Virus record (IMG/VR): IMGVR_UViG_3300049846_001482
DNA from: an uncultured virus (IMG/VR IMGVR_UViG_3300049846_001482)
Taxonomy: Duplodnaviria; Heunggongvirae; Uroviricota; Caudoviricetes
Direction: 5' to 3' (one strand)
Length of the DNA: 64,000 bases
The notes under the pieces are model-generated. The model was not told the DNA's origin and ran no database searches. It saw only the letters and a list, made by a program, of their open reading frames with translations. A program made the translations under genes and the position numbers. Position 1 is the first letter of the stretch, and each line of letters opens with the position of its first letter. This document shows positions 3,231-50,304 of this stretch, piece by piece.

Positions 3231-3513
3231 TCAGTTCGGGAAAGAGTTCAGTCAACCTATTGGATTCCCACTCCTTGAGTTTTTCCATCTCTTTTTCTAG
3301 CAGGGCGTCATTTTCAAGAAGAAAGGCAGCAACCAATTGATGGTGCTGCCTTTCTAATTGATCTAAAGATATTGCGTGAAGGGAAATACACTGCCTGACG
3401 ATAGCCTCAACTCTCTTTCCCACTCCCATGTTCCTAGCTGCGTGTCTCAGGTTGATGGCTATAAGTTTTTGTTCGAACTCTTTCAGATAGATTCCATATC
3501 TATCCCTTGGCAT
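3217..3513 (-). CDS. hypothetical protein
   Basis: 98-aa ORF, packed. Confidence 0.6.
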   Translation of the reverse strand: MPRDRYGIYLKEFEQKLIAINLRHAARNMGVGKRVEAIVRQCISLHAISLDQLERQHHQLVAAFLLENDALLEKEMEKLKEWESNRLTELFPELNEQV

Positions 3514-3718
3514 TGTCCCTCACGAAGTTTTCAATGGCCTCAATGTTGTCAATGATCAACTTGGCCTTTGCCACACCCATCGTAAACGGGTACTTATCAT
3601 CGGGTGTTCTTCTTAGCGATATTGTCGGATTGCCCTTGTACTTACCTATCTCAACTAAAGCATGGGGAGTGTTCTCGTCTTCACCCTGCTTGTCAAAATC
3701 AAAATCTCCACCAGACAT
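3500..3718 (-). CDS. small hypothetical protein, possibly PC4-like nucleic-acid binding
   Basis: 72 aa, AGGAG RBS, YKGNPTISL...YPFTMG.AKAKLI pattern. Confidence 0.55.
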   Translation of the reverse strand: MSGGDFDFDKQGEDENTPHALVEIGKYKGNPTISLRRTPDDKYPFTMGVAKAKLIIDNIEAIENFVRDNAKG

Positions 3719-3949
3719 GATTACTCCTTTTTCTTGTATGAGGACCGTATCAGGTGTTCCCTGACCGTGAACTCGCCCATTTTTCCTTTAACCATCCATC
3801 TTGAGTTTCCAAGATCTTTGATCACGACAATTTCTGTTTTTAGATTGGTGTGGACAAAGACATCGCCCACCCTCACTTTATCTGTCATATACATGCACCT
3901 CCTCCATTATACTAAAACTTTATAGAAGATGCAGTGAATATATCACTTT

Positions 3950-12946: not shown

Positions 12947-13478
12947 TCTGTAGCGCTATGCTCTCTGGTGTATGACGAGTGGCATTGTTCTTGATGCTAT
13001 CAATATGCTTACACATCATCTTCTTATAGCGATATCTGGCCATCTGGTGTTTGTAGAGAATTCCCCAGCGATGAGGTCTTACGATGAAGTCTATGACATT
13101 CAGGACTGGATTGCTTCTGAACGTCCTCCTCACACCATTGATCTGTTTGGATAACTTGCGTGGCTTGTGAGTAAATTTTGGTCTCTTTTCTACGCTCTGT
13201 AGCGGAATCTTTGTGAGCGCAGCAGCCATTCGCTTTTGTGTCTCTTCACGGGTGTACCACTTAGGGTATTCATCTATCCTAAAGCCAAGCTCTTTCCACA
13301 GAGCTGGGGCAAACCTCTCCTTGTCTTCGTCGGAAAGCTGCTCCCACGATTCTTCTAGCTTGTTGTTAACCCAAGCATCGTACATCCAAGAAGATAATGG
13401 CTTCAATTTTTCAGCTTCTTCTTCGCTTATTTCCATCAATGAACGACCATTCAAGATTGCATCAATCTCTGGCTTCAT
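12930..13478 (-). CDS. hypothetical protein
   Basis: 182-aa ORF, packed. Confidence 0.65.
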   Translation of the reverse strand: MKPEIDAILNGRSLMEISEEEAEKLKPLSSWMYDAWVNNKLEESWEQLSDEDKERFAPALWKELGFRIDEYPKWYTREETQKRMAAALTKIPLQSVEKRPKFTHKPRKLSKQINGVRRTFRSNPVLNVIDFIVRPHRWGILYKHQMARYRYKKMMCKHIDSIKNNATRHTPESIALQIERLK

Positions 13479-13870
13479 AGTAGCGGCAATCCTCCAGTAA
13501 CCTCATCTATTTTCTCGGAAGCATTCGGTCCAACAGCGCAGCACGTTAGGGTAGGCACTCCACCAAACTCTGTTAGCCCATTGTCCCTTATGAGGGCGCA
13601 GTTCAACCCAGCCTCTTTGGCTTTGTTGTAGACATCAAGGAGTTCTTGTTCGGAATTGACGCTAACGCAGATCTTGGTGAAGATACCATCGACCCACTCA
13701 AGTTCTTCGGGGGTGAAGATTATGAATTTTGATCTAGGACCAATCATGTCTCTGGCATCACTCATCTTCTCCATCATGACTTTCATGGAGGCATGAGCGC
13801 CTTGGGCAACCATCTTACCCTTACGCATGTTGAGGTCTTTCCTCATGACGATGACTTGTTTGACGCTCAT
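13475..13870 (-). CDS. pth2: peptidyl-tRNA hydrolase, Pth2 type
   Basis: KQVIVMRKDLNMRKGKMVAQGAHAS, IRDNGLTE, T..AVGP, IDEVTG.L.LL motifs. Confidence 0.95.
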   Translation of the reverse strand: MSVKQVIVMRKDLNMRKGKMVAQGAHASMKVMMEKMSDARDMIGPRSKFIIFTPEELEWVDGIFTKICVSVNSEQELLDVYNKAKEAGLNCALIRDNGLTEFGGVPTLTCCAVGPNASEKIDEVTGGLPLL

Positions 13871-14061: not shown

Positions 14062-14261
14062 CGAATCCTCTTGATTTCTGCGATCAGTTCTTCGCTGATA
14101 CGGCAGAATTCTGTTGAGTCAAAGACTTCCCCAGATGCTCTCCAATGAACAGATCCAGCCTGACCTATTGCCATGTAGACGGCTTCCCTCAGCCTTGCGT
14201 CCTCATCGTCTTTGATGAGTCGCTTGGCTGTAGCATTGGAAGCCCACGAGGCTCTATTCAT
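14058..14261 (-). CDS. hypothetical protein with MNRASW tag
   Basis: Internal ATG overlapping the thg1 3' end. Confidence 0.55.
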   Translation of the reverse strand: MNRASWASNATAKRLIKDDEDARLREAVYMAIGQAGSVHWRASGEVFDSTEFCRISEELIAEIKRIR

Positions 14262-15027
14262 ACCCTGGGGTTGGGATGAGATTCTGGAGTTCTTCTTTCT
14301 GCTCAGGGAACTTGAACATCGGGACAGTCTCCCAGCCACCCTCTGCATTGCGTTTGATCAAACGCCCACGCTTGATGTCATCGGGAAGCTTGGCCCAGTT
14401 CTTGTCCTTCTTGTGCAACATCTCGTGCATGTCAGACCTTCCCTTACCCTGCAACTCCTTGTGGGAGTAATTGCTACGAGCAAGCATCTGAATGCTATTA
14501 CGCTCCCAGTCCCTCGTCCGCCAGAGGAAGCAGTTGTAAACCTCTACGGGGTCGGGAATGACAAAGACACGGGAATCGAACATGGCAAAGGGAGCGCCAT
14601 CGTCCCAAGACTTGCTCAGGTCAAAGCCGCTTCCGTAGAAGAGCTTCGTCTGAAAGAAGGACGTAGCCATAGCAGCCGAGATGGAGACCATCTTCTGCAC
14701 GTTGCCACCGAACCAAGACTGCGTATCCACCTTCTCGAAGTCAGTGAGCAGAATGGAGATCTCGTCTGACTGAACATAGGCAAACTGAGCGCCTTGGATG
14801 TTCTGGCAGAGGAACTGAGCAGTACGGTTCATGAGGTCAATGAGCCTCATATCAAAAGGCTTCTCGGCTTTGATCTTCTTGACGAGAGAGTGGAAGGCTC
14901 GACCATCAAGGCGCAGGATGGCGTAAGTGCGACGAGGCAAGACCGTCTGCGTAACGGCCTCATAAGCCTTCATTCTGTCGCCAAGGCTATCCTTGCTTGT
15001 CTTCTTTGTCTTCTTGATCTCTTTCAT
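14254..15027 (-). CDS. thg1: tRNA(His) guanylyltransferase, Thg1-like
   Basis: RMKAYE, RLDGRAFH, YVQSDEISI, FDSRVF, WR..DW.RNS motifs. Confidence 0.95.
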   Translation of the reverse strand: MKEIKKTKKTSKDSLGDRMKAYEAVTQTVLPRRTYAILRLDGRAFHSLVKKIKAEKPFDMRLIDLMNRTAQFLCQNIQGAQFAYVQSDEISILLTDFEKVDTQSWFGGNVQKMVSISAAMATSFFQTKLFYGSGFDLSKSWDDGAPFAMFDSRVFVIPDPVEVYNCFLWRTRDWERNSIQMLARSNYSHKELQGKGRSDMHEMLHKKDKNWAKLPDDIKRGRLIKRNAEGGWETVPMFKFPEQKEELQNLIPTPGYE

Positions 15028-19113: not shown

Positions 19114-19385
19114 TTAAGTGTCTCCGGTACGGCTACGGATGCGTCCTGTTTGCCAAACTCATTTAGATATCGCCAACCGCCAACATCTTTGTGGAACAAA
19201 CCCTCGTGAATCCCATCTGAGTAACAGACCTCAACGGCCAACTGCTCCCCATAAACGTTTATGAGACGATGCTCCATTGCTGCAACACAGGCTTTCTCAT
19301 AGGTCTCAATGACGCCATCCAAAGACCCCATCCATCCTGCATCACCAGCGCCAAAGACATGGAACCCTTTTTTAAACCCTGACAT
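19110..19385 (-). CDS. hypothetical protein
   Basis: 91-aa ORF. Confidence 0.6.
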   Translation of the reverse strand: MSGFKKGFHVFGAGDAGWMGSLDGVIETYEKACVAAMEHRLINVYGEQLAVEVCYSDGIHEGLFHKDVGGWRYLNEFGKQDASVAVPETLK

Positions 19386-19406
19386 GTTACACCAGCAGAA
19401 AAAAGT

Positions 19407-19608
19407 AATGGCGGGAAGGGTGCCGAAGCAGAAATGCGACGGTTTGATAAGGGTTGAATCTTAAGGTTTGATTCTGAGGTTTCAACTTTGAAAGGATAAA
19501 AGTTAAGTTTTTAACTCATTATCTTTTTCGAAGCCAATAGTTAAGATCGGAGCTCCCGAAGGAGCGACCGTACCGCCTCAAATCAACCCCGACACCCTCC
19601 CACCATAT
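19407..19608 (-). ncRNA. candidate structured ncRNA downstream of the DIP1984-like gene
   Basis: ~17-bp closing stem with G-U pairs that form only on the minus strand; internal GCUCC-UUCG-GGAGC hairpin; ~7-nt periodic AU-rich loop. Confidence 0.7.
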
Positions 19609-19641
19609 TCAGACGGCCGAGACCGCCTGAACTCGTGACGC

Positions 19642-20109
19642 TCAATCAGGAATGGAGACCTTGGTCATCTGATTGAGATAGGTGATCTTGTCCTGCAACT
19701 CTTCGAGACGGTCCTCAGCTTCTTGGACCATCTTCTCGATTGAGGACTGGTCGTAGGAGACCACCCAGTTTCTAGTCTTGTTGGGCTGATTGTAGCCGCC
19801 GCTGTATTCCTCAGCACCTTCTCTGGTGTTGACGGCTCGGAGATAGGAGATGCGGGACTTCAGCTCTGCCATCTCATAGATGAGGGGGAAGACACCAGCA
19901 TCAGCATTGCCTTTAGCAATAGCCGCCTTGACGGCTGCAATGCGAGCTGACTTATCGGTGTATTCTTTGAGGAGTTCCTTCACGTCGAAATGCTGCTTGG
20001 TGCCTTCAACGTGGGAATTGTGGCTTGCAATGAGGTTGGCGACATGGGCCAGGCGGCCAGCCAACTTGTTCTTGAGGTTCAACGCCTTGCTGATAGACAC
20101 TTCTGACAT
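19642..20109 (-). CDS. DIP1984/DUF6847-like helical protein
   Basis: ISKAL.LKNKL, N...EG, K.AI...N and LQ.KI...N.MT pattern resembles the DIP1984 family; GGAGG RBS. Confidence 0.7.
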   Translation of the reverse strand: MSEVSISKALNLKNKLAGRLAHVANLIASHNSHVEGTKQHFDVKELLKEYTDKSARIAAVKAAIAKGNADAGVFPLIYEMAELKSRISYLRAVNTREGAEEYSGGYNQPNKTRNWVVSYDQSSIEKMVQEAEDRLEELQDKITYLNQMTKVSIPD

Positions 20110-20138
20110 ACATCCTCCACAGGTTTATTTGACAACCT

Positions 20139-20167
20139 ATTATAGTAAAAAGTGGAGGTTCTTCCAA
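20139..20167 (-). promoter_or_regulatory. sigma70-like promoter for the DIP1984-like gene
   Basis: TTGGAA-17 nt-TATAAT. Confidence 0.6.
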
Positions 20168-20169
20168 AT

Positions 20170-20718
20170 TTATGTTCCAGGATCGAAAGATCTTCCTGGA
20201 GTCATGTGGATACGCTTCTTCATCTTCTCCATTTTCTTAATAACACTTTTCTCTCTAGCTAGTGATAGTAATGTCTCAACTCTGGTGCAGGGCTCAAAGT
20301 AAGTCCAGAAGTCTGAAAGTGATATTTTGTTTAGGTCGTAGAAAACTTGCACATTTGACCAGCCATCATCCTTTACGTCAAGTATCTGGACAGGTTGACC
20401 CGTAGCCTTCTTCTTCCAGTAAGCCTTGGCATGAATGGCATGCTTTGAGAAAGTATATCTTTTCTCAAAATGCTCTACCTTAGATTTGAACCATCCTCTT
20501 GGTTTATCGTAGCGATAATAGCCACGAGAAGTATCCATTAGGTTTGTGTAATAAACCCATCCATCATTGACACCACAGACAAAGACATTGATCAACATGT
20601 CGTTGAGCGAATTTCTTTTGTCTTCAACTGTGCAGAACCATATCTGTCCACGGTGAACCATGACTACCTCGTATGCCTTAGGAAGACAAAGTACAGGTCC
20701 AAGTTGTTCTTGCTCCAA
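20170..20718 (-). CDS. hypothetical protein
   Basis: 182-aa ORF; start uncertain. Confidence 0.6.
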   Translation of the reverse strand: MEQEQLGPVLCLPKAYEVVMVHRGQIWFCTVEDKRNSLNDMLINVFVCGVNDGWVYYTNLMDTSRGYYRYDKPRGWFKSKVEHFEKRYTFSKHAIHAKAYWKKKATGQPVQILDVKDDGWSNVQVFYDLNKISLSDFWTYFEPCTRVETLLSLAREKSVIKKMEKMKKRIHMTPGRSFDPGT

Positions 20719-21085
20719 TTGCTGTATTGTTGGTTCTGCAAGTTCTGGAGGCGGTAGTTGTCTTTGGTTGTGTCAATGCTGATGATGACGTAATTATTAG
20801 GCGTTCTTGTATAGTCAAAGTTTGGAGCCAGTTTGTCTTGCAGCTCGTCGCCAACTCTATATTGATTCATATGAACCTCAAAACCACGATTGCAATGCCG
20901 ATCATCATGGAAAGTAAGATAGTAACCATCAAAAGTTTATCTGAGAACCCGTGCCAGTCTTTCTCTCTCCACTTCTCCACCATCATCTCGGCTTGAACCC
21001 ACAAGATGATGGCACAGAGGACTTCCATGCCTAAGAAAATTAGGCTAAACGCCACTTTCCATATCACTCCGAAGATCAGATCCAT
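20664..21085 (-). CDS. two small ORFs (20664..20870; 20867..21085, membrane protein)
   Basis: ORF track, 4-nt overlap, hydrophobic helices in the second. Confidence 0.55.
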
Positions 21086-21704
21086 CTATGCCCCTAATTT
21101 TGTTTGGCACCCAAGTCTTAGACCAGTGTTCAGTGGTGCGAACATGGTTCTTCCTGACGAACTTGGCGCAAAGATTTTTGTAGTCGTCCACGGAGAACTC
21201 AGAAACAGCCCTGATGACGTACCCTTCCATTTCCCCGCCGTAAGCCGACTGCCAAGGAACCTTGTAGTCTCTACTTAATACGCCCCTATAAAGGATGGGG
21301 ACATATTTAAGCCCAAGCCTCTCACACCACTCCAGGGTCTCATCCACCGACAGGAAGACATTCCTATCCTTGTCGATGACATTGAAGACGTAGAAGAAGT
21401 CGTCTAGGTTGTCGTAGAAGATGCTGTGCTTGGCGTAGACGTTCTCGCCGCAGATCTGGATATGGGCTGGGATGAGGTGTTTGATGGAGCCCCACTTGCC
21501 CTTGACCACACTCTGCCAGGGGTAGGCATCGCCATTCTCTGACCTTGCATGCAACTTATGGGAGTGCAAAGAGGTATTCTCGCCGTCTAACTTCTCAGTT
21601 ATGACGACCTCTTTGCCCCATAGGGAGTCCATTGTCTCGATCCTGCGGTCATCGTTCTGCAGGTTGGGAGAGTCTGGAGTATGCATGGTCTTCGGGTATT
21701 TCAT
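21045..21704 (-). CDS. RNA ligase family nucleotidyltransferase
   Basis: KYPKT.H, TEKLDGEN (motif I), ICGEN, FYVF, EGYVIR, AKFVR motifs. Confidence 0.9.
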   Translation of the reverse strand: MKYPKTMHTPDSPNLQNDDRRIETMDSLWGKEVVITEKLDGENTSLHSHKLHARSENGDAYPWQSVVKGKWGSIKHLIPAHIQICGENVYAKHSIFYDNLDDFFYVFNVIDKDRNVFLSVDETLEWCERLGLKYVPILYRGVLSRDYKVPWQSAYGGEMEGYVIRAVSEFSVDDYKNLCAKFVRKNHVRTTEHWSKTWVPNKIRGIDGSDLRSDMESGV

Positions 21705-23623: not shown

Positions 23624-23974
23624 CTACCACTCCAGATAAACGCCCTGCACCCACTTCCAGATCTTGTCCGTTCTGACGCTGTAGCCAAGAGCCTTAAAGT
23701 AGGAGGAGTTCTTAACGATGAAGTCAGCATCACTACCATCGTAGTATCTTTTATGTCCTCCATGACTTTTAGCTGCGTATTGAACTCCACCCAAGATGCT
23801 GTCAACCCTCTTTTTGAAGGTCTCCTCAGCATGTACTTTTGCGTTCTCTCTGGCTTGGTTGGCATTGAAGTGCTTGTTGTCTGCCAAGAGCACGTCTTTG
23901 TCCAGAACAATACCGTCCTGAACAATCTCTTTGCTCTCAAGAGGTTTCCCATCGATGAAAGCAGCCCTCTTCAT
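23624..23974 (-). CDS. hypothetical protein with MKRAAF tag
   Basis: 116 aa, overlaps the mnmA stop by 4 nt. Confidence 0.65.
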   Translation of the reverse strand: MKRAAFIDGKPLESKEIVQDGIVLDKDVLLADNKHFNANQARENAKVHAEETFKKRVDSILGGVQYAAKSHGGHKRYYDGSDADFIVKNSSYFKALGYSVRTDKIWKWVQGVYLEW

Positions 23975-25044
23975 ATGATCTGTCCTCCACCAAAACAGAC
24001 GTTGTTGCCTACGTCATAGAAGACCGCAGCCTGACCAGGGGAAATAGCCCTCTGGGGCTCCATGAACCGCACCAGAACCCCCTTATTCGTCACCTGGAGG
24101 GTCGCCAGGGCTGCTTTAGCCTGATGACGTATCTGGACTAGGGCCGAACCCTCGTAGGGCGTTCCAGACACCCAGTTGACGTTCTCAACCTCACAGCGGT
24201 CTGCATAGAGGTCAGCATCATCACCCAGAACCACCGTGTTAGATTCTTTGTCAATTCTGAGGACGTACTTGGGGTCTCCACCAGAGATGCCCAATCCACG
24301 CCTCTGTCCCACAGTATAGAATGCAATGCCATTGTGCTCGCCAATGACATGCCCCATCTTGTCCACCATAGGTCCAGGCTTCTTGACTTCCTTATCCAGA
24401 AGCTCAAGCACCTCTCGGTAGTCGCCATTGGGCACAAAGCAGATGTTCATGCTCTCTGGCTTGCGGGCATTCCTCAGACCAAACTCTTCGGCCTGCTGAC
24501 GGACCTGCTCCTTGCTGATGGCATTGCCAAGAGGAAAGAGCAGCTTCGACAACTGGCTCTGGTTAAGTCGATAGAGGAAGTAGGTCTGATCCTTCTCGGT
24601 GAACAGGGCTCGGCTCAGACGGAACTTGCCGTCCTTCTCGTCAATACGGGCATAGTGACCCGTAGCCAACTTGTCCATCTCAAGAGAGGTGGCAGTCTTC
24701 ATTAGCAGGTCAAACTTCAACCTGTCGTTACAAGCCACACAGGGGTTGGGTGTGCGTCCGTTCTGGTACTCCTCAAGGAAGTAGTCAACGACTATCTTCC
24801 TGAAAGCATCCTCGTAGTTGAACACGTAGTAGGGGAAGCCGATCTTGGAGGCTACCTGACGGGCATCCATCATATCGACAGAGCCGCAGCAAGCCTTGGT
24901 GTTGACATCACAATCCTGACCGGCCAGGAGTTTGTCCTGCCAGACCTTGAGGGTGACGCCGGTGACATCGTGGCCCTGCTTGTGAAGCAGAGCGGCGGTC
25001 ACAGAAGAATCAATGCCTCCCGACATTGCTACTAGAACCTTCAT
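23971..25044 (-). CDS. mnmA: tRNA 2-thiouridine(34) synthase
   Basis: AMSGGIDSS, GRTPNPCVACN, ATGHYAR, KDQTYFL, ES.NICF, YTVGQRRG, SPGQAAVFY motifs. Confidence 0.97.
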   Translation of the reverse strand: MKVLVAMSGGIDSSVTAALLHKQGHDVTGVTLKVWQDKLLAGQDCDVNTKACCGSVDMMDARQVASKIGFPYYVFNYEDAFRKIVVDYFLEEYQNGRTPNPCVACNDRLKFDLLMKTATSLEMDKLATGHYARIDEKDGKFRLSRALFTEKDQTYFLYRLNQSQLSKLLFPLGNAISKEQVRQQAEEFGLRNARKPESMNICFVPNGDYREVLELLDKEVKKPGPMVDKMGHVIGEHNGIAFYTVGQRRGLGISGGDPKYVLRIDKESNTVVLGDDADLYADRCEVENVNWVSGTPYEGSALVQIRHQAKAALATLQVTNKGVLVRFMEPQRAISPGQAAVFYDVGNNVCFGGGQII

Positions 25045-28505: not shown

Positions 28506-29600
28506 TCAGTTCTCCGTCTTGACGAGGTATTCGGGGCTACGCTGCTTGATGAAGAGACGGCCACGCTCACGAGACTGCGTTCCATCCTCCTTGGTCTTCA
28601 CCCACTCGACAATCTGCTCGGTGACGGGCTTGATGACGATACCCTCACGCAGAACGTCTGGGTTGATGAGAGACTTGCCGTTGGAAGCCTCCTGAACGGT
28701 CTTACCATTCAGCCAGTCACGCAGTTTGCCCCTGAAGATGGTGGGAGCAAACTCCACACGCTCTTCACCGAACAAGGCGTTCACCATCTCATCCACCGGC
28801 AGAGGATGTCCGTTGACTTCCAGTTCAAAGCTGAAAACCTTGTGGTCCTTCAGCTTGTAGTGGTTGCCCTGAATGCCAGGACCAGCCAGTTCTCCACGTA
28901 GGGTCACGGACTTGCCGTGGAACTTCTGCTTGTAGAGGTTGGTGATCACCGTGTCGAGCTGGAGGCTATTCACAGCCTTAATGAAGGTGTGAACGTCCTC
29001 TGAGCCTTCAATGGGGGTGACGGTGTGATGATGTTGGTTGACTCGGACCACACCGACCTGATCGATGGAGATGCCAAAGTTGGTGCCTTCGACCTTCTCG
29101 GAGATCCAGACTTCCTGATCCATCAGCATCTCGATGATGGCAGGGAAGCGGTCAGCGCCCTCGATGTCGTAGTGACCAACGAAAGCCGCCAAAGGTGTCA
29201 GGTTGGCTCCCTTTCCAGCAAACAGGATGGGTGGCTCGTACTTGGTGACACCCAGGGCTTCGGTCAGGTTGGCTGGCAGTTCAGTGACACCCAAGAACTC
29301 CTTGATCTTGCCAGCCTTGGCCACAAAGCCCTGGCTGTATTCGCCACGCAGCTTGGCTGACTTCACACGAGTCCGATCCTTGCCAGACAGGTAGTTCCTG
29401 ATCTGGAAGAACTCAATGAGAGGGTCAGGCAGGATGGAGTCAATGGGGAAGTAAACCACTTCCTCGCCAACCTGATATTCACCCTTTCCAACTGCGAACT
29501 GGAAGAGCAAGCCTTCAACGCTTGCAAGATCCAGTCGGTCAGCGTTGGAATGCGGCCAGACCTTTGAGATGTTCTTCTTTTCGACAGCGAAGAAAGCCAC
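28506..29600 (-). CDS. RNA ligase, DRB0094-like family (N-terminal OB-like domain)
   Basis: H.NADRL, VVYFPIDS.LP, KLRGEYSQG, LGV.KYEP, SEKVEGTN, LRGE..GPGIQGN, REGIV; GTG start inferred. Confidence 0.9.
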   Translation of the reverse strand: MAFFAVEKKNISKVWPHSNADRLDLASVEGLLFQFAVGKGEYQVGEEVVYFPIDSILPDPLIEFFQIRNYLSGKDRTRVKSAKLRGEYSQGFVAKAGKIKEFLGVTELPANLTEALGVTKYEPPILFAGKGANLTPLAAFVGHYDIEGADRFPAIIEMLMDQEVWISEKVEGTNFGISIDQVGVVRVNQHHHTVTPIEGSEDVHTFIKAVNSLQLDTVITNLYKQKFHGKSVTLRGELAGPGIQGNHYKLKDHKVFSFELEVNGHPLPVDEMVNALFGEERVEFAPTIFRGKLRDWLNGKTVQEASNGKSLINPDVLREGIVIKPVTEQIVEWVKTKEDGTQSRERGRLFIKQRSPEYLVKTEN

Positions 29601-29601
29601 G

Positions 29602-30039
29602 TTAGCTCTCCTTTCCAATGCGGTTTGCTTCAAACCACTCATCTAGGGTGTAGAAATCAGGGAAGTTCTCTTGCATTTCCCTCTTGCCGTAATCGGAGCG
29701 GTAGTAGAGGTCGCTGTAGTAGAACTCCTCACCAAGAAAGACCAGTGAATGCGGAGGGGTGGCAGGCTTCTCCCTGAAGAGAGCCACCATCTGTTCATCC
29801 AGTTCACCAGTCACCCCAGGCTTACGAGCCTTGCGAGACTTTTCTGCCAGAGCGTCGTACTTCTTACGCCACTCGGCGTCAGCCAGAGTATGGGCATCCC
29901 ACTGCTCACGCAGCTTTAGAAATGCCTCAAGGAAGTCATTCTCCAACTTCTCCTTGGACTCATACTCCACAGGGTACACGTAATCGCAAGAGCCACAAGG
30001 CTCGGATCCTGGAGGAGACCAAAAGATGATGCAACGCAT
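29602..30039 (-). CDS. hypothetical protein
   Basis: 145 aa; PVEYES...TLDEWF pattern. Confidence 0.65.
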   Translation of the reverse strand: MRCIIFWSPPGSEPCGSCDYVYPVEYESKEKLENDFLEAFLKLREQWDAHTLADAEWRKKYDALAEKSRKARKPGVTGELDEQMVALFREKPATPPHSLVFLGEEFYYSDLYYRSDYGKREMQENFPDFYTLDEWFEANRIGKES

Positions 30040-34199: not shown

Positions 34200-36763
34200 T
34201 ACAGCCTCGGATCGAAGGTTTTCTCACGCTTCTCTTCAACGACCATCTCAGCGCACAGGTCAAGGTATTTGACATTGCTATCGCTGATGGCGTTGTAGGG
34301 AATCTCCAGCATAGCCTTGCCAATCTCAAACTCCTTGATGGATGTCTTGAGTTTGTTCCTGATGCTCTTGTCCTCAAGCATCTTGGTGAACTTAGGCTCA
34401 ATTTGGTAATCGTAGCCATAGATGATGGTGAGGTAGTTTGGATTCCTGACCTTCATGTATGGAGCAACGCCAGGGATGTAAACTTTGGCGGCTGGCTTGA
34501 CAACCACTCCCTCAACGTTGTTGCTGACCTGCTCGGCAAACCAAGCCTTAGCCTCAACAAGTCCAGCGTCGGTTGTCTCGCAAACAACAAAATCGTCATT
34601 TGAGACAGCAGAGAAGACTTCCTCGTTGCTTGCGTCAAAGTAGGTCTGCTCGACACCCTCAAAGGTAACGGTCTTGAGGAGAGCAAATGGCCTGAACTCC
34701 AACTCCCCTTCGTTGCCGTAGATCTCCATCTGCTTGTTGTAGATGGAAATTGCAGCCTTCTGCTCTTCCAAAGATAGCCATTTGAAGCCATCAAAGGCGG
34801 ACATGAGCCTGTAGGTAGCTTCGCCCATGCTGTCCATGAGGTCTTTCTTCTTTTGGCTATTCTTGAGGCTCTTGTAGCCAGATGCATCAAACTTCTCCTG
34901 CATCTTAGACAGGGATGACTCAAAGCCAGTCTTCTCCAGCAACTCGGCTTCAGTGGATAGCCCAACGCCAGTCGTCTTGAAGTGTGAGTCAATGAGTCCC
35001 TTACCCAGCGCAGACCAAGGCATTAGCTCACCATCAATGATGATTAGCTTCTTGTCGTCTTTGAAGCCCCTACCCATCCAGACTTCACGCATCTTCTTGT
35101 AAAGAGGGGTGAGGTCCAAGTGCTTGATGACAAAGCCATTACGGGACACCATGTAGGACTCTTCGATGTCGTGTGGGAAGAGATACATGTTGGCACGACT
35201 TCCCATATACTTCTTCTGGAGGATGACCCTTTCTACCTTGGATCCCCTAAAGTACTCAAAAGCCTCACGCATGTCTTCCAGCGTCCTCTCCTTGAGGTTC
35301 TTGTCGCATGGAGACATGGTTCCAGAGATGAAGTTGATCTTGTTTCGAGCAAACTTGACAACATCCATCTTGTCATCAAAATCCAGAGACTCGAACAAGC
35401 CCTGTTTCTTGATGATCTTGAAGTTGGCAATGTCCCCTTCGGCAGCACCCTTTGGAACGGAGCTGGGAACCCACTTAAAGCTGATGGTTCGGTTGTGGGA
35501 GTTGAAGAAGACCCCAGTCAACCTGTTTCCGTAGGCGCAGCCAGTATCGAGGAACACTTTGTTGCCGACAGTTGTAGCCTCAGCAACAGCAATGTGCCCA
35601 AAGAAGTGGTAGGGGTCACGCCTATTGGATTCATCAAAGACATAGTGAATGCTCTTCTTGATGCCCTCAATGAAGGCTTCGTCAGAGTCGTATTCCCTAC
35701 GCCAGCCATAGGAGCAGTTACCCTGATCCTTGGTGGAGCGATGATCCATCTTGCCAATGCGATTGTTGGCACAAGGGGCATGGGTGACAACAAAGTGATC
35801 GTGCAACAGGAAGTAAGAGCTGTTCTTCATGATCTCCATGAACTTGCTCTTGGCGCTCTCTGTCATCTGCCCGAAGGAGTCGAAGAACTTAGCCCTCAGT
35901 TCATCAGCAGCCTTGTCGTTGTGGTTGTTGGTGATGAAGCGAATCAGGGAGTGGTCGTGGTTTCCAATGACCGTCCTGATACGAGCCCTATTGGCGTGAA
36001 TGAACTCGATGAGGTCGTTGATCTGCGGACCTTTGTCAGCCAAATCGCCAGCAAGAACAATAAGGGTGTCGTCATTGCCCTTGATGATGCCAGCCTCAAT
36101 GGAAAAGCCAGCAGCAATCAGCAAGTCCTCAAATTCCTTGAGGCAAGCATGGATGTCGCCAACAATGAAGTAGCGACTGAACGGCGGCAGGACAGAAAGA
36201 GCCATCGTATCGTAAGTGGCATCCCTGTCCAAAACCAGTTCTGCGTCCTTCGACTTGATCTTGTGGAAGAACTCAAAGTCCCTGCGGCGAATCTCTCCCA
36301 GCGTCTCCTGCTTGAAACGCTTGAGATGCTGACCAATGAGCCAAGCATGCTTGGGGTCCGTGTACTTGAAGTACTCGTCCCTGTCGGCATAGTCAAAGCA
36401 GAAGCCCGTGAGGCGGTAATTGGCTTCTTTGGTCAGATCAATGAAACGCTGCCTAGACTTCTCACCAATGAAGGTGGCGTCCAGAATGACGAAATCGGCG
36501 GAAACGGGCCAAGTGGTGACGGCTTGGAACTTGGCCTCCATCAACTTAAAGGCTCCCTCAGAAGCATAGTTCATGAGGTCGTCTGCCTTATCCAAGTTCT
36601 TTCCAATGATCTCCCTGCGGTATTCGTCTGAACTCAAGATCTGAATATTGGCATTGGGGACCATGCTCTTGAGGGCAGGCACAAGCTTCTCACGGATGAA
36701 ATGGCTTTTGCCACACCCGCTTGGACCAACCATCATGATGACTGACTTCAATGGAACGTTCAT
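34199..36763 (-). CDS. pnkp: polynucleotide kinase-phosphatase-ligase (bacterial Pnkp type)
   Basis: P-loop GPSGCGKS; metallophosphatase GDIH/GD..DKG/GNHD; ligase KYMGSR, DGELMPW, EGVVVKP, KVRNP.YL.IIYG; ends DPRL. Confidence 0.95.
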   Translation of the reverse strand: MNVPLKSVIMMVGPSGCGKSHFIREKLVPALKSMVPNANIQILSSDEYRREIIGKNLDKADDLMNYASEGAFKLMEAKFQAVTTWPVSADFVILDATFIGEKSRQRFIDLTKEANYRLTGFCFDYADRDEYFKYTDPKHAWLIGQHLKRFKQETLGEIRRRDFEFFHKIKSKDAELVLDRDATYDTMALSVLPPFSRYFIVGDIHACLKEFEDLLIAAGFSIEAGIIKGNDDTLIVLAGDLADKGPQINDLIEFIHANRARIRTVIGNHDHSLIRFITNNHNDKAADELRAKFFDSFGQMTESAKSKFMEIMKNSSYFLLHDHFVVTHAPCANNRIGKMDHRSTKDQGNCSYGWRREYDSDEAFIEGIKKSIHYVFDESNRRDPYHFFGHIAVAEATTVGNKVFLDTGCAYGNRLTGVFFNSHNRTISFKWVPSSVPKGAAEGDIANFKIIKKQGLFESLDFDDKMDVVKFARNKINFISGTMSPCDKNLKERTLEDMREAFEYFRGSKVERVILQKKYMGSRANMYLFPHDIEESYMVSRNGFVIKHLDLTPLYKKMREVWMGRGFKDDKKLIIIDGELMPWSALGKGLIDSHFKTTGVGLSTEAELLEKTGFESSLSKMQEKFDASGYKSLKNSQKKKDLMDSMGEATYRLMSAFDGFKWLSLEEQKAAISIYNKQMEIYGNEGELEFRPFALLKTVTFEGVEQTYFDASNEEVFSAVSNDDFVVCETTDAGLVEAKAWFAEQVSNNVEGVVVKPAAKVYIPGVAPYMKVRNPNYLTIIYGYDYQIEPKFTKMLEDKSIRNKLKTSIKEFEIGKAMLEIPYNAISDSNVKYLDLCAEMVVEEKREKTFDPRL

Positions 36764-37688: not shown

Positions 37689-38930
37689 CTACTCCAAGAC
37701 AGCGCCAATGCTGCAGCTATGCCCATTGACGTTATCGCCAATTTCGATGATACGAGCAGACCTCTCGCCTTTAACTTCATTGATCCAAGCCTCAAACTCA
37801 GCCTTGGTCATCTCAAAGTGATGGTCATCATGACGCATCTCTTCGTCATCAAAGAAGTAGAACTGGTTAAAGTCCTTGTTTGGAGTCGTGATGATGACCT
37901 TCTTGCACCAACGACTGGAGAGCATTTGCTTGACAAGGCTGGTTGCCTCATCCTTCTCCATATGCTCAATGACTTCTGAGAGGATGATGTCATGCTCTTG
38001 CCTAAGATCCAGCAAGCTCGTAGTCGTAAGGAGATGTTCTGGTTTTTCAGCCATCTCACGAGCAAACCTACGCTTGACAGTCTCGATCATCTCAGGGTCT
38101 TTGTCAATGGCGATGTAAACGAATTCACCCATTTTGGGTAGAAAACGCTTGACAAAGTTGCCCTCACCGCAACCGAAGTCTACAACAATCTTGTCAAAAG
38201 CCAGTTCTTTCTCCACAGCCGCAATACGCTGTTGAGAAGCGAAGCCAAACTGGAACTTGATGTCCTCAAAGGAGTTCTGTTCAAGCGACTTGACGTGCTG
38301 TTTGAAAACAGAGATATCCCTCAAGACATTGACCTTGAAGACATACTTGACGAAGAAGGGAGCCTTGATCGTGGCAAGGTAACTGAGATACTTATTGATC
38401 TCAGCATCGTCCAGCCTGCGATTCTTCAAGACATTGAACATGGCAAAGAGCTGGACAAAGGAGAAAAGCGTCTTGAAGCTCTCTTTGGTCGAGAAGGTGA
38501 CACTAAAGTTGTTGGGGCAAACCTCAGTGAAATCAATCTTGACGTTGGTGAAGTATTTTTGGAAGATCTCCAAATACTTCTTCTTTACCAGCATCATGTT
38601 GACGAAGATGGAGTTCTCAAAGCCCTCAACGTCATCGCTGTTATCCTTCTTGATGACATGGGCAAAGAACTCGTTGATGGAGTCTAGGACAAACTCGGCA
38701 GCGTTGTGCTGGCTGGGATTGACATAGCTCCACTCTTCATCCTTGAACTTCTTGTAGGAGATCTCGTGTTCGTGGTCCTTGAAGTAGCAGTTGAAAACAG
38801 AGTCATTGTTGGAGTAGTAACCGAACAGCCGACCCTGCTTCAAGGAACGCACAATCATCCCCGACTCAGGGTTCTTCCTGATGATGAAGGACAACTTTGG
38901 GTTGTTTGACCTTACCTGCAAGAAAGCCAT
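37689..38930 (-). CDS. hen1: Hen1 3'-terminal RNA 2'-O-methyltransferase
   Basis: N-terminal LSF..RKNP region; DFGCGEG, EVIEH, ITTPN.DFN, RH.DH.FE motifs; near pnkp. Confidence 0.92.
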   Translation of the reverse strand: MAFLQVRSNNPKLSFIIRKNPESGMIVRSLKQGRLFGYYSNNDSVFNCYFKDHEHEISYKKFKDEEWSYVNPSQHNAAEFVLDSINEFFAHVIKKDNSDDVEGFENSIFVNMMLVKKKYLEIFQKYFTNVKIDFTEVCPNNFSVTFSTKESFKTLFSFVQLFAMFNVLKNRRLDDAEINKYLSYLATIKAPFFVKYVFKVNVLRDISVFKQHVKSLEQNSFEDIKFQFGFASQQRIAAVEKELAFDKIVVDFGCGEGNFVKRFLPKMGEFVYIAIDKDPEMIETVKRRFAREMAEKPEHLLTTTSLLDLRQEHDIILSEVIEHMEKDEATSLVKQMLSSRWCKKVIITTPNKDFNQFYFFDDEEMRHDDHHFEMTKAEFEAWINEVKGERSARIIEIGDNVNGHSCSIGAVLE

Positions 38931-46546: not shown

Positions 46547-46745
46547 TTTCTGCCTCGTACCATTGAACCCTGAGCCTATTGTCTCGGCTCCACAGTTTCC
46601 AGTGACCACCCCACAGATAGCACCACGTCAGCCCAAACCTTCCGATTTGGAGCTCGTACATAGTAGCGCCCTTTAGAACGCCCATCCATACCCCAAAGGG
46701 TCGGGCTGTGATGTAGTACTTGCCGACTGTGATGCCCGTCTTCAT
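46536..46745 (-). CDS. hypothetical protein
   Basis: 69 aa; overlaps the nadE stop by 4 nt. Confidence 0.5.
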   Translation of the reverse strand: MKTGITVGKYYITARPFGVWMGVLKGATMYELQIGRFGLTWCYLWGGHWKLWSRDNRLRVQWYEAENGD

Positions 46746-48472
46746 GCCAGAACGTTAGCGGGAGAATGCTTCTGGACAATGGGGAGCCTTCGCCCAGCGC
46801 CCCAAGCCTTCTGGTGGACTCTGATGGTAGGAGCAGCCTGACGACGCTTGAACTCTGCCCTGTCCACCATGCGATGGATCTTGGCGAAGTCCTTGAAGCC
46901 AGCCTTCTCCACCGTCTCCTTGCACTTGGCAAGGATCTTGGGGTCGATCTCCGTTCCCTCAATGTAAGGGATGAGAATGGCATCCAAGACAGGGTAGGGC
47001 GGCAGCGAGTCCGAGTCCTTCTGCCCCTCATAGAGTTCAGCCGAGGGCTCCTTGTCGATGATGGCGTTGGGGATGACCTCTCGCCACTTGGCATCGTTGA
47101 TGTAGCGGCAGAGTTCCCAGACCTCAGTCTTATAGAGGTCGCTGATGGGAGCCAGACCGCCGTTCATGTCGCCATAGATGGTGCAGTAGCCCACGGCACA
47201 CTCGCTCTTGTTGCCAGTGGTAAGCGGAAGGTATTCTGGGTTCTCATTGGTGAAAGCCATGAGAATCATGCCCCTGATTCGAGCCTGCAGGTTCTCTTTG
47301 GTCAGGCTCTTCTGCGACTTTCCGAAAGCTGCATCAAAGCCTTCCATGAGGGTGTCAAATCCTTCCCTGATGGGATATTCATAGAGTTTGACGCCAAGGT
47401 TCTCGCAAAGCTTCTGCGAATCCGTGACGCTTCCCTTTGAAGAGATTGCCGAAGGCATCGTGATGGCAATGACGTTCTCGCTTCCCACCGCTTCCACGGC
47501 CAGGGCCAGAACCAGAGCCGAATCAATGCCACCACTCGAAGCAATGGCAACCTTCTTGAAGCCACACTTCCTCACATAGTCCCTGATGCCAAGGACAATC
47601 TGGCGGAAGTAGAAAGCAGCCTCAGGGCGCTTCCGCTTAGCTTCATTTTCGCTCTTCAAAGCGATGTTTCCGCCAGAGTAGTGAGGGTCAAAGAGACCGC
47701 CATTTTCATCGTCCCACCAGATCGCCTTGGTCTCTTCGGTGAACGAGTCCATGACTACTTTACCATGACCATCGGGATTGACGGCAAAGCTGGTGCCATC
47801 AAACACAATGTCGTCGTTTCCGCCGACTTGGTTGACGTAGAGGATGGGAACCCCATGCTCCTTCGAGATGGCAGCGAACTTCTCCAGCCGATATTCGGGC
47901 TTGCCGACATTGGAAGGCGAAGCATTGACGCTGACGATTAGCTCGGCTCCCGCCTTGACAGTTTCCTCTACGGGATTGACGGGATAGAGGAACTTGTTGG
48001 TGATCGCCTTGTCATTCCACATGTCTTCGCAGATAAGCAAGCCAACCACGGTTTCGCCAATCTGGAAGGTGCAGGTTTCCTTCCCAGGCTCAAAGTGGCG
48101 GCTCTCATCGAAGATGTTGTAGGTGGGGAGCAGTCGCTTCTTGTAGGTTCGAGCAATCTCGCCATTACCCAGAAGCGAAGCGCAGTTGAAGAAGGGCTTG
48201 CCGACACCATCGTTTTCCATGATGTGTCCAACGATGACAGCAGCCTTCATGTGGTAGGTAAGAAGAGCCAGTCGTCCGAGGTATTCCATCTGCTCTTTGC
48301 AGAACCCAGCCCTCTCCACAAGGTCCAAAGGAGGATAGCCAGTCAGCGACAGCTCAGAGAAAACAATGAGGTCGTAGTAAGCCCCATTCTTCTCCATGAC
48401 TTCCTTGATCTTGAGGTAGTTACCCTCAAGGTCTCCAACGATGTAGTTGAGCTGAGCTGCTAGAATCTTCAT
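46742..48472 (-). CDS. nadE: glutamine-dependent NAD+ synthetase
   Basis: Nitrilase domain (FSEL..TGYPP, YKK..LP.Y..FDE.R.F, ICED.W) plus synthetase domain (SGGIDS, ENLQARIRG, TTGNKSE..VGY.T.YGD, PSAEL...Q.D). Confidence 0.96.
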   Translation of the reverse strand: MKILAAQLNYIVGDLEGNYLKIKEVMEKNGAYYDLIVFSELSLTGYPPLDLVERAGFCKEQMEYLGRLALLTYHMKAAVIVGHIMENDGVGKPFFNCASLLGNGEIARTYKKRLLPTYNIFDESRHFEPGKETCTFQIGETVVGLLICEDMWNDKAITNKFLYPVNPVEETVKAGAELIVSVNASPSNVGKPEYRLEKFAAISKEHGVPILYVNQVGGNDDIVFDGTSFAVNPDGHGKVVMDSFTEETKAIWWDDENGGLFDPHYSGGNIALKSENEAKRKRPEAAFYFRQIVLGIRDYVRKCGFKKVAIASSGGIDSALVLALAVEAVGSENVIAITMPSAISSKGSVTDSQKLCENLGVKLYEYPIREGFDTLMEGFDAAFGKSQKSLTKENLQARIRGMILMAFTNENPEYLPLTTGNKSECAVGYCTIYGDMNGGLAPISDLYKTEVWELCRYINDAKWREVIPNAIIDKEPSAELYEGQKDSDSLPPYPVLDAILIPYIEGTEIDPKILAKCKETVEKAGFKDFAKIHRMVDRAEFKRRQAAPTIRVHQKAWGAGRRLPIVQKHSPANVLA

Positions 48473-48546
48473 GGTTTCTCCTTTTGTTCTCGACTTTCTA
48501 ACCAGGAACCCAAACTAGTTGGGTTCAAGGTAAGACAGTGGAGACC

Positions 48547-49125
48547 TTATCGGGCATCGCCCTTGCTAAACACGTCCAGCGTCTTGTCCTTGCGTGTCTC
48601 GAAGGCGTTGGCCGTCTCATCGCTGGTCACGGGCTCGTAATCAGACCACTTGAAGTCAGCCGAGGGCTTGCCCACGAAACTGGCCAGCATGGAGGTGGGG
48701 AACTGCTTGACGTAGGACTTGTAGGCACGAGCCTTGTCGATCATGTCGGTCTGCGTAGCCTTGAAGTCATTGCGCCCGCTTTCGATGACCTGCTGCACCT
48801 GCTTATAGAGCGAAGCATCGAAGTTGGGGTTGGACTCCTGGATCCAGTTCATCAGCGGGTTCTTGCCCTTGTAGCGGCCTTCCATGAGACCCAGGTAGAC
48901 CTTCTGCATGTCGCCAGAGTACTGCGAAGGCACCTGAGCCACTTCCTTGACGCTCTTCCAGAAGTTGTCGTATTGCGACTTGGAGACATCCTTCGAGGCC
49001 TGGAGCGTGGTCTCGTAGCGGACGCAGGTGTTGTTCGTGGTGACGAGCATGATGCCGAAGATGAGGGCGAAGACCAAGCCCAGAGCACCGGCGACACCGA
49101 GGACGATCAGGACTGTGCGGTTCAT
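48547..49125 (-). CDS. membrane-anchored protein, LemA-like
   Basis: N-terminal TM; C-terminal YKSYVKQFP.SMLA resembles LemA; AAGGAG RBS. Confidence 0.65.
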   Translation of the reverse strand: MNRTVLIVLGVAGALGLVFALIFGIMLVTTNNTCVRYETTLQASKDVSKSQYDNFWKSVKEVAQVPSQYSGDMQKVYLGLMEGRYKGKNPLMNWIQESNPNFDASLYKQVQQVIESGRNDFKATQTDMIDKARAYKSYVKQFPTSMLASFVGKPSADFKWSDYEPVTSDETANAFETRKDKTLDVFSKGDAR

Positions 49126-49146
49126 GTCTTACTCCTTACGTTGGGG

Positions 49147-50283
49147 TTAAAAATTACGGCGGTAGCCACCGTAATCACTTCCTTGGCTCTCAAAGTCCAC
49201 CAGATTGACCAGCACCGAAATGGCGATGGCTAGGAAGATGGAGATACCAAGAAGCCAGTAGAATTCATTATCCGTCAGGATGATGGCTTGGTCAAGGTAC
49301 TTGTATTCCTTCATGGACTTGCGGAAGAAGTGCTTCTCCACGTTCTCGCCAATCGTCTTGATGATGGCGGGACGGTCCAGTTTGCCCACTTGCAAGATAC
49401 TGTCACGCATCTTGACCCTGAACATATCACTCTTGGCCCAAGCCAGCGTGTTGGTCCAGCGAATCATGCCATCAGGGTTAGTATCGATGAACACGATGAT
49501 GTCGTTCTTCTTGCCACCCAGCCAATGCTCCTTGACGGCGTAGAAGTATTCCTCCGACAGAGCAGGCGTGAAGAGGATGATGATATTGCACTGCTTCTTA
49601 GGACCGATGGCGGCATTGAGAGCAGTCAGATCCTTGTTCCACTGAGCCAACTCAGGGATGGAGACATTCCCGATGGGAAGAGCCCTATCAAGGATGGTGT
49701 CGTAGTCAGAGATGGCAGTGGGATAGGTCGGCAAGAAACTCTTGTAGCGTTCCTTGAAGCCCTGCTGACGAATGATAGTAGCCGAGTTGCCCTTGACATA
49801 GTTGACGTAGTTGCTCATGTGCATGTTGGGATCACCAGGCTTGAACTGCGTCCACCGGGGCGGCTCCTGCAGACCTTGGCGGTCAATGGTGGCGACACGG
49901 AAATCATCGCTGCCCATGCCCCAGGTGTAGAACACATTCCAGTCCACATCGAACTTATGCTCGTAGCAGGTCGAGCAGTGGCGAGTCGTCCAGCAGTGGC
50001 GAGAAGAGCCCGAACCAGAGCAATGCTCAGTTTCCCAGCAAGGAGGGCACTCGTAGCTATGGCGGCAATGAACCTCTTCACGCTTCTTGTCGGTGACGTG
50101 GCCGTTGATGACCTGCGTATCCGACTGCTTACCAGCCGAACAGCCAAAAACGGTGATGGTCATGACCAGCATGATGCCACCCACCTGAAAGGCGAGTTCC
50201 TTGACAGTCACACGCTTCCTGAAAAACAGGAAGTTCAGCAGCGAAATCAGGATGGCTGGGGCAACGATGTAGAGAAACAGCAT
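49147..50283 (-). CDS. membrane protein with Cys/His-rich region and possible TPM-like domain
   Basis: Two N-terminal TMs, C.HSY.C...C.TCYEH, W.GGKKND..V, C-terminal TM; GGAGG RBS. Confidence 0.75.
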   Translation of the reverse strand: MLFLYIVAPAILISLLNFLFFRKRVTVKELAFQVGGIMLVMTITVFGCSAGKQSDTQVINGHVTDKKREEVHCRHSYECPPCWETEHCSGSGSSRHCWTTRHCSTCYEHKFDVDWNVFYTWGMGSDDFRVATIDRQGLQEPPRWTQFKPGDPNMHMSNYVNYVKGNSATIIRQQGFKERYKSFLPTYPTAISDYDTILDRALPIGNVSIPELAQWNKDLTALNAAIGPKKQCNIIILFTPALSEEYFYAVKEHWLGGKKNDIIVFIDTNPDGMIRWTNTLAWAKSDMFRVKMRDSILQVGKLDRPAIIKTIGENVEKHFFRKSMKEYKYLDQAIILTDNEFYWLLGISIFLAIAISVLVNLVDFESQGSDYGGYRRNF

Positions 50284-50304
50284 ATCTTCCTCCGAGTTGA
50301 CACC

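Follow-up and report, generated by a model that had tools for sequence, protein, structure and literature searches.

RNA sites that consist of phased triplets are read by the oligomeric proteins HutP, which recognizes UAG every 7 nucleotides (nt), and TRAP, which recognizes GAG or UAG every 5 to 6 nt; the sites of both are cis-acting leaders that lie upstream of the regulated genes and act by attenuation. In the type III toxin-antitoxin system ToxI/ToxN, tandem direct repeats of 34 to 36 nt are located upstream of the gene for an endoribonuclease toxin, and GOLLD and ROOL are large structured RNAs of phages and bacteria that are often found beside tRNA genes. In Salmonella, the operon rsr-yrlBA-rtcBA (PMC4201824) is controlled by RtcR and combines Y RNAs (YrlA and YrlB) with Ro60 (Rsr), and RtcR is reported (PMC7790460 and PMC10159003) to respond to tRNA fragments ending in a cyclic phosphate. 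The current study deals with a stretch of 64,000 nt from an uncultured virus of the Caudoviricetes (IMG/VR record IMGVR_UViG_3300049846_001482), referred to as the window, in which the gene of a small DIP1984-like protein is followed by a non-coding RNA with motifs recurring about every 7 nt. The whole unit lies on the minus strand, and coordinates are window positions. We interpret gene and RNA as a single transcription unit for a two-part module of RNA and protein that functions in RNA damage or tRNA maintenance, and we put the probability of this reading at somewhat above one half (approximately 0.55).

Comparison with related loci argues that the RNA is real, that it is made from the minus strand, and that it is kept beside the DIP1984-like gene. 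The loci gathered comprise 43 viral loci, 6 distant metagenome loci, 2 loci on genome contigs, and, from a sample of 401 Verrucomicrobiota genomes, 17 places in 15 genomes. Once duplicates with identical downstream sequence and two truncated loci had been removed, 49 downstream regions, including that of the window, were analyzed. Downstream of the homologous gene, typically 80 to 130 nt past the stop codon, 7 was the best of the periods 6 to 9 in 41 of the 49 nonredundant loci, and the periodicity score exceeded that of the upstream and coding sequence controls (Mann-Whitney P values of 1.5e-5 and 7.6e-8, respectively). The 7-nt periodicity characterizes the family as a whole. An nhmmer search with the window RNA returned the loci L007 (E value of 7.5e-4) and L002 (E value of 0.025), in both cases downstream of the gene, and the heptad arrays of the window, L007, L008, and L002 can be aligned.

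Covariance models extended this picture. At an E value of ≤1, model R1, which is based on nine phage RNAs, had 21 matches; 20 of them lie downstream of the gene and on its strand, and the model extended to a second group of phages as well as to three bacterial loci. Model R2 was rebuilt with the window sequence excluded and used on 218,824 bases; all 21 matches at an E value of ≤1 are located just downstream of a homologous gene, on the strand of that gene. Its sole match in the 64 kb of the window is at 19401-19608 (minus strand; full model length, 23.9 bits, E value of 0.02), and the bacterial loci L063, L060, and L064 are matched with E values of 1.2e-7 to 8.5e-6. A third model (R3) found three places only in 172,751 bases of bacterial context, each of them between the DIP1984-like gene and the next gene. 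With respect to the closing stem of the RNA, 96.4% of the cells pair in the MAFFT alignment A4, with a covariation of 0.216 versus 0.146 for shuffled alignments (reached by none of 500) and of at most 0.047 for slid controls. In alignment A7, whose fit to the model makes it lean towards structure, both partners vary in 18 of the 22 pairs (none of 500 shuffles). The closing stem is, on these alignments, conserved and covarying. The earlier note on this DNA, which was made from the sequence alone, had proposed to look for conserved structure and periodicity downstream of homologs, and both are present. Two other measures can be added: the number of minimum free energy (MFE) pairs enclosing the heptad array is at least 10 in 43 of 49 loci, a count that is uninformative because flank-shuffled controls do as well (44 of 49), and the energy of the flank-flank duplex has a z score below -2 in only 18 of 46 loci, with three loci with short flanks skipped. 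In the search for close relatives of the window RNA, blastn against cultured and deposited phages yielded no match, and tblastn found two huge uncultured phages without annotation. In one phage lineage (L024, L025, L029, L037, and L043; positions ~1937-2125), gene and RNA are separated by an inserted open reading frame (ORF) of ~62 codons that has two CxxC pairs, and the RNA is intact behind it.

In the window, the RNA is ~205 nt long, counted from the start of its closing stem through a U-run (19606-19399, minus strand), and is free of ORFs. Folding of 19645-19395 (minus strand) gave an MFE of -96.8 kcal/mol versus -65.6 ± 4.5 kcal/mol for 200 dinucleotide shuffles, none of which was as stable (z score of -6.86; plus strand, -3.19). 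The closing stem P1, with the 5' strand AUGGUGGGAGGGUGUCGGGGU at 19606-19586 and the 3' strand at 19429-19408 (both minus strand), consists of 21 base pairs (bp) with one bulged U (U19417) and five G-U/U-G pairs. On the plus strand, these five pairs would become A-C mismatches; a closing stem with wobbles that form on the minus strand alone had been claimed and is seen here. Within P1, the stem P2 joins GGCGGU (19577-19572) to ACCGUC (19443-19438), again on the minus strand. The earlier note had drawn this inner stem as GCG..ACGGU/ACCGUCGC; the stem itself stands, but the fold favors GGCGGU/ACCGUC, and the claimed register would engage the same 3' strand in an alternative pairing. The 5' strand of P2 and the hairpin P3 (CGG/GCUCC-UUCG-GGAGC/CCG) together occupy 19548-19577 (minus strand), and the predicted C-UUCG-G tetraloop hairpin was recovered as GCUCC-UUCG-GGAGC at 19565-19552. 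A look for RNA sequencing runs that contain this DNA returned none. Variants were taken from contigs of four DNA runs aligned to the window, with few variant positions and a contig depth of ~3; in one of them (depth of 3), the P3 pair G19565-C19552 is replaced by U-A. No Rfam 15 family matched the window RNA, neither in a scan of the window nor at E values up to 10 in 19300-19750, where the returns were tRNA and chance-level matches.

A further pairing was noticed: GGGUUGA/UGAGG just inside the closing stem (19583-19575) could pair with the heptads UCAACCC/CCUCA (19480-19451), and the word pair GAGG...CCUC recurs in four related phage RNAs (window, L007, L008, and L002), as judged by eye from too few sequences for covariation. 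Such an alternative pairing may represent a pseudoknot or a switch.

The most conspicuous part of the RNA is an array of 11 U-N-A motifs at 19521-19445 (minus strand), 6 to 8 nt apart and mostly of the form Y-U-N-A-A, in an AU-rich stretch between the UUCG hairpin and ACCGUC. The spacings between the starts of the U-N-A motifs are 8, 7, 8, 7, 7, 6, 7, 7, and 7 nt. In 300 local shuffles, no chain as long as these 11 units arose, and the period-7 autocorrelation was matched by 1 of 2,000 dinucleotide shuffles, each of which was free to pick its best period from 5 to 8; the evenly spaced U(U/C/G)A motifs of the earlier note, about ten in its count, are therefore confirmed. In a related contig (depth of ~3), the window heptad UUGAAAC reads CUAAAAC, i.e., the Y and N positions change and U and AA stay. 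When nine related phage RNAs were aligned, the U-C-A-A columns were invariant and the spacers varied. The core of the motif differs between lineages, being mostly UCAA, UUAA, or UGAA and elsewhere GUAA, CCUCA, or others, and a strict U-N-A chain of at least 7 units is found in 19 of the 49 loci. A super-period of 14 nt, as might be expected for a dimer, does not hold throughout: the signal at lag 14 is stronger than that at lag 7 in 15 of 49 loci, the window being among those 15. The architecture of the RNA family is that of a conserved closing stem and an array of 8 to 11 U-N-A (Y-U-N-A-A) motifs at distances of ~7 nt.

The partner gene encodes a protein of 155 amino acids (aa) that matches the NCBIfam model DIP1984_fam (NF038048) with 32.4 bits (cut-off of 70; E value of 8.8e-8; residues 7-147 on profile positions 3-145 of 149) and the Pfam model DUF6847 (PF20935) with 25.5 bits (cut-off of 27; E value of 1.4e-5). 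Neither curated cut-off is reached, and the matches are nonetheless full-length. A profile search of 1.84 billion cluster representatives returned 1,854 relatives at an E value of ≤0.001, and all 150 among the matches listed are 142 to 172 aa long; there are also relatives at 49 to 87% protein identity. AlphaFold2, with an alignment of 56 relatives, predicted four helices and four short strands (mean predicted local distance difference test [pLDDT] score of 97.2). The top Foldseek match of the model was 3kdq_A (E value of 8.1e-5, probability of 1.00, template modeling [TM] score of 0.66, identity of 19%; runner-up E value of 0.16), and the profile of the 56 relatives hit 3kdq over its full length among the PDB sequences (E value of 2.8e-4). 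This crystal structure of DIP1984 from Corynebacterium diphtheriae agrees with the window protein in length (~150 aa) and in the succession of helices and short strands, whereas the scores below the cut-offs and the identity of 19% to 3kdq set the window protein apart from the DIP1984 family. Based on the full-length sub-threshold matches, the predicted fold, and both matches to 3kdq, the window protein is, as modeled, a divergent member of the 3kdq/DIP1984 fold family. The label DIP1984-like in the earlier note, for which a check against the family profiles had been suggested, consequently holds for fold and full-length match, but not for the curated score cut-offs. No match was found in PHROGs for the window protein or two neighbors, or in PADLOC for the window protein. 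In the part of the literature covered by our search, DIP1984/DUF6847 is mentioned only in plasmid epidemiology, and no function is on record for the family.

When four copies of the protein were modeled together, the interaction prediction score from aligned errors (ipSAE) was 0.66 versus 0.04 for the best control; for calibration, 20 of 30 proteins with structures solved as pairs attained that mark, as did 1 of 23 with single-chain structures. The contacts agree by at least 94% between runs, with a partner pLDDT of at least 87. The modeled interface comprises residues 20-35, 43-97, and 113-119, and it is interpreted as that of a two-fold dimer because the set of residues is identical on both copies. 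Since the entry 3kdq has four chains, the pass in the self-association test may reflect memory of this structure. The conserved polar residues K8, K13, and N14 in the N-terminal and Q139 and N146 in the C-terminal part are absent from the listed interface and, being conserved nevertheless, are candidates for an RNA-binding face.

The genomic context in bacteria was studied in 16 of the 17 Verrucomicrobiota places, where the ORFs within up to 6 kb on each side were scanned against Pfam. RtcR is encoded within 6 kb in 7 of the 16 loci (L069, L070, L076, L079, L081, L082, and L083), at least one of RtcR, RtcB, RtcA, Ro60/TROVE, and RlaP in 9 of 16, and a sigma-54 promoter (TGGCACG-N4-TTGCT) is located 20 to 300 nt upstream of the gene in 6 of 16. 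The order in L081 is divergent rtcR, DIP1984-like gene, RNA, and rtcB; in L082, a Ro60-like gene lies ahead of the DIP1984-like gene, and a Ro60/TROVE-like gene is found on the same unit as the pair in L072, L082, and L044. In bacteria, the pair is the first unit of RNA-repair operons of the sigma-54/RtcR type, before rtcB or rtcA and sometimes after a Ro60-like gene. The earlier note had spoken of a module of unknown function and missed this repair context, i.e., the RtcR, sigma-54, RtcB, RtcA, and Ro60-like genes and sites in bacteria and a tRNA/RNA-repair island in the window itself. Rfam models of Y RNAs had no match in 11 bacterial loci, the returns being tRNA and chance-level matches. 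Several bacterial copies have a separate strong terminator hairpin 3' of the RNA.

Further observations were made in bacterial genomes and plasmids. In L070 (5686-6441; G132), a tRNA gene, which ARAGORN called tRNA-Asn in L053, is situated between the sigma-54 promoter and the DIP1984-like gene, beside a divergent rtcR; the tRNA may be the first product of an RtcR-controlled operon in L070. In L071 and L072, which are 38 kb apart in G388, and in L074 (G101), a tRNA array (7 to 13 tRNA hits) and the gene of a sigma-70-family protein are followed by the DIP1984-like gene and the RNA. The blocks of L071 and L072 also contain an HNH gene and an unknown gene, and that of L072 additionally TROVE and RtcB-like genes; all three look like prophage-derived or mobile tRNA/repair islands. 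The Pfam model also has a match in Deinococcus radiodurans. The DIP1984 family is moreover present in 355 plasmid records, 343 of them from Acinetobacter, under the name "septicolysin" in some. An 8,731-bp plasmid of Acinetobacter baumannii (L085) has 322 nt without annotated gene (3463-3785) after its DIP1984 family gene; this stretch has AU-rich phased units and a closing stem of 11 bp free of mismatches, folds with z scores of -2.6 and -2.4 on the two strands, and was not matched by the covariance models. The 8.7-kb plasmid was not found in PMC11472050. The single plasmid region inspected also carries a gene for the antitoxin BrnA.

In the window, a sigma-70-like promoter upstream of the protein gene (TTGGAA-17 nt-TATAAT; 20167-20139, minus strand) agrees with the consensus in 10 of 12 positions; promoter-like sites in 19200-20400 number 3, compared to a mean of 1.0 in shuffles. 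The gene, preceded by the ribosome-binding site GGAGGA, occupies 20109-19642 (minus strand) including the stop codon. Directly 3' of the stop codon is a hairpin of 11 bp (19632-19607, minus strand) with no U-run behind it. In related contigs of low depth, C19616 is replaced by U, giving a G-U pair, and U19622 by C, giving C-G; both changes preserve pairing solely on the minus strand. A run of six U (19404-19399, minus strand) after the closing stem is the likely end of the transcript, and the ATG of the next gene is located at 19385, 14 nt beyond this run. A simple terminator scan did not call the U-run because the "loop" is 156 nt long. Stem and U-run would fit a plain intrinsic terminator, but this reading was rejected for the element as a whole, as the stem encloses 156 nt that carry conserved phased motifs. 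The promoter, the 155-aa protein with its predicted helical fold, and the small post-stop hairpin had all been listed in the earlier note, whose observation of these elements was confirmed in every part.

To characterize the neighborhood in the window, 77 of 93 ORFs were scanned, the scan leaving out the DIP1984-like gene itself and 15 other plus-strand ORFs. The island comprises genes for PTH2 (13478-13870), Thg1 (14257-15027), an RNA ligase (21048-21704), an MnmA-like tRNA thiolase (23974-25044), a second RNA ligase (28509-29642), Pnkp with complete kinase, phosphatase, and ligase domains (34202-36763, minus strand), and Hen1 (37692-38930, minus strand). The Pnkp/Hen1 pair is a bacterial RNA repair-and-protect system. 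ARAGORN detected eight tRNA genes at 58.7 to 61.9 kb. No TROVE/Ro60 domain was found among the 77 ORFs scanned. An Rfam tRNA match of 56.6 bits over the full model spans 123 nt (61457-61579, minus strand) and was not listed by ARAGORN; a tRNA gene interrupted by ~50 inserted nt, or an intron, could account for this match. A row of NAD-related genes at 46745-55812 (minus strand) encodes an NAD synthase fused to a CN hydrolase domain, a nicotinate phosphoribosyltransferase (NAPRTase), and a NUDIX protein, and a NAPRTase gene also adjoins the module in the viral locus L038. Of 25 viral loci, 10 have tRNA genes on the same strand at a distance of up to 1.5 kb. In L002, a 127-kb viral contig, the gene of a class-I peptide chain release factor (PCRF and RF-1 domains; 67-1140) is located directly upstream of the module.

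Overall, a mechanism can be outlined for the two-part module. The closing stem would present the motif array as a loop, along which several copies of the protein would bind, with approximately one binding surface per heptad. The particle would act during damage or repair of RNA, above all of tRNA, and it could be a scaffold or chaperone like Ro60 with Y RNA, or a holder of broken RNA ends. A phage would benefit from such a particle if its own and the host tRNAs were kept working against ribonuclease defenses of the host. The two-component ribonucleoprotein proposed in the earlier note has held up as a conserved unit of gene and RNA; that the protein binds the RNA, in which stoichiometry and in what role, we infer. 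The note's idea of one site per subunit, following the logic of TRAP, is not supported, as the self-association model shows a symmetric two-fold interface and not a ring.

Several observations weigh against a role of the pair as an RNA-binding repair module. The modeled interface is a closed two-fold, from which a polymer with one subunit per heptad is not predicted, and the MFE structure pairs 28 nt of the window heptad array. The median isoelectric point (pI) of the family is 6.75, with values above 8 in 5 of 56 proteins, and a near-neutral pI is unusual for an RNA binder, although not excluding. With respect to the context, 7 of the 16 bacterial loci have no repair gene within 6 kb, the Rtc link was examined in one phylum only (Verrucomicrobiota), and no consistent repair gene is found within 1.5 kb across the phage loci, where the neighbors are mostly unknown proteins, with ligase-like BRCT domains, NAPRTase, and one release-factor gene seen. 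The covariance models reach only 21 of 49 sources, and an iterated nhmmer sequence profile did not grow past its 4 seed RNAs; the status of all downstream RNAs as one family therefore rests on architecture and periodicity. Moreover, the fold z scores show no strand preference across the family, being below -2 in 22 of 49 loci in the sense and in 25 of 49 in the antisense direction.

Among the other explanations, the one that survives best, with a minor but real chance of being correct, is that the RNA acts alone or with another partner, e.g., an RNA ligase, a Ro60-like protein, or a ribonuclease titrated by it, and that the helical protein is merely co-expressed. The three loci with a Ro60/TROVE-like gene in the same unit (L082, L072, and L044) suggest such a partner, at the place where Salmonella has its Y RNAs (PMC4201824), but these are the only loci examined with such a gene, to be compared with none of the 77 window ORFs, and the DIP1984-like gene is the sole constant neighbor of the RNA. 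The helical protein is not basic, and U-N-A units are short enough for many types of factors, which fits this explanation; the Y RNA motif GNCGAAN0-1G is absent from the window RNA and scattered in 12 of the 49 regions.

Somewhat less probable is a cis-acting 3' untranslated region (UTR) of the protein's own mRNA, i.e., a stabilizer and terminator or an autoregulatory feedback site instead of a free RNA. The sole promoter-like match between the gene and the 5' end of the RNA sits in the heptad array (19485-19458; 9 of 12 positions), and because of this location no promoter is placed to start the RNA. The closing stem with its U-run resembles a terminator, but a terminator needs no conserved insert of ~160 nt with phased motifs and covarying stems; the separate strong terminator hairpin that then follows several bacterial copies would again suit a UTR. 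The RNA is, however, kept in phages with the ~62-codon ORF between gene and RNA, and a role in processing or protection would be in keeping with the hairpin after the stop codon.

A more specific idea, which we regard as speculative and improbable, is that the heptads are tandem mimics of the 7-nt anticodon loop and that the protein holds the RNA as a decoy or sentinel for anticodon nucleases. We take Y-U-N-A-A-R-N to correspond to tRNA positions 32 to 38 and the U-N-R core to a U-turn, and the heptad units presumably read like the anticodon loops of Leu(UAA/CAA/CAG) and Phe(GAA). Relatives have a closing CUCUUUU box, which is not present in the window RNA and which we assume to read like the loop of Lys(UUU). 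If this were true, the phage RNA would soak up ribotoxins of the host, and a cleaved bacterial decoy would yield cyclic-phosphate fragments that are resealed by RtcB or fed to the sensor RtcR. Lineages with CCUCA, GUAA, or UG units fit the comparison less well.

It is quite unlikely that the pair is a toxin-antitoxin or abortive-infection system in which the RNA neutralizes the protein in a type III-like manner, and the RNA-antitoxin-like module suggested in the earlier note finds no support here. A repeat-bearing RNA does adjoin a small protein gene, and the family is common on small Acinetobacter plasmids (343 of 355 records), with the BrnA antitoxin gene in the single region inspected; the repeats are, however, imperfect heptads downstream of the gene, the reverse of the gene order of ToxIN, Foldseek revealed no nuclease-like fold, PADLOC gave no match, and the module occurs in phages and, in bacteria, is controlled by RtcR. 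Finally, a DNA-level element, such as replication-origin iterons or a protein-binding array flanked by an inverted repeat, has very little probability in spite of the phased AT-rich short repeats between inverted repeats and of an Acinetobacter plasmid copy that folds about equally on both strands, as the five G-U pairs of the window closing stem are mismatches on the other strand, the window RNA folds better on the minus strand, the stems covary, and all strong model matches are on the strand of the gene.

Under the preferred reading of a module in RNA damage or tRNA maintenance, the DIP1984 family, which is large and still without function despite a structure solved since 2009, gains a likely RNA partner and a likely field, namely, the RtcR/RtcB repair response in bacteria and the upkeep of tRNA in large phages. 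RNA-repair operons would gain a second kind of non-coding RNA besides Y RNAs, a simple code for RNA recognition is offered with a three-base core every seven bases, and phage biology one more component in the contest over tRNA cleavage. Within the literature covered, the Rtc link and the proposed RNA-protein partnership are new, but the literature on Rtc operons might already describe the protein.

Compared to known systems, the pair shares its genomic setting with GOLLD and ROOL, i.e., tRNA arrays and RNA-repair genes in large phages, but the window RNA is much smaller, has no Rfam match, and is always paired with one protein gene. Type III toxin-antitoxin systems are alike in the repeat RNA beside a small protein gene and in their occurrence on plasmids and phages, and they differ in the length of the repeat (imperfect 6 to 8 nt here), the gene order (RNA downstream), the protein fold, and the missing PADLOC match. 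Y RNAs (PMC4201824) are, like the window RNA, non-coding RNAs with a long stem formed by the two ends, and the bacterial loci correspond in position: a small RNA-associated gene, the RNA, and rtcB after a divergent rtcR and a sigma-54 promoter. The Y RNA/Ro60 system is also carried by phages, as is the DIP1984-RNA pair. In contrast to Y RNAs, which have the motif GNCGAAN0-1G close to their 5' end (PMC4201824), this motif occupies inconsistent positions where it occurs downstream of the gene, and there are no tRNA-like T and D arms; ARAGORN found no tRNA in the window RNA element, and a T-loop-like word is present in 2 of the 49 regions (L010, inside a called tRNA gene, and L007). The constant partner gene is that of a helical protein of 150 aa instead of a TROVE ring, and the window has no Ro60/TROVE gene within 4 kb on the same strand among the 77 ORFs scanned, unlike L072, L082, and L044. 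With HutP and TRAP, the RNA has a three-base core at a fixed short spacing in common, and the period of 7 nt in the window is that of HutP. The window RNA, however, is not a leader but is found behind its partner gene, with its ends paired in the closing stem, and the partner has the 3kdq fold with a dimer interface in the model and not a ring; the fold is unrelated to HutP and TRAP, as no such chain appeared among the Foldseek results. By their defining features, the element is neither a Y RNA/Ro60 nor a HutP/TRAP system, and it resembles each of them in one respect.

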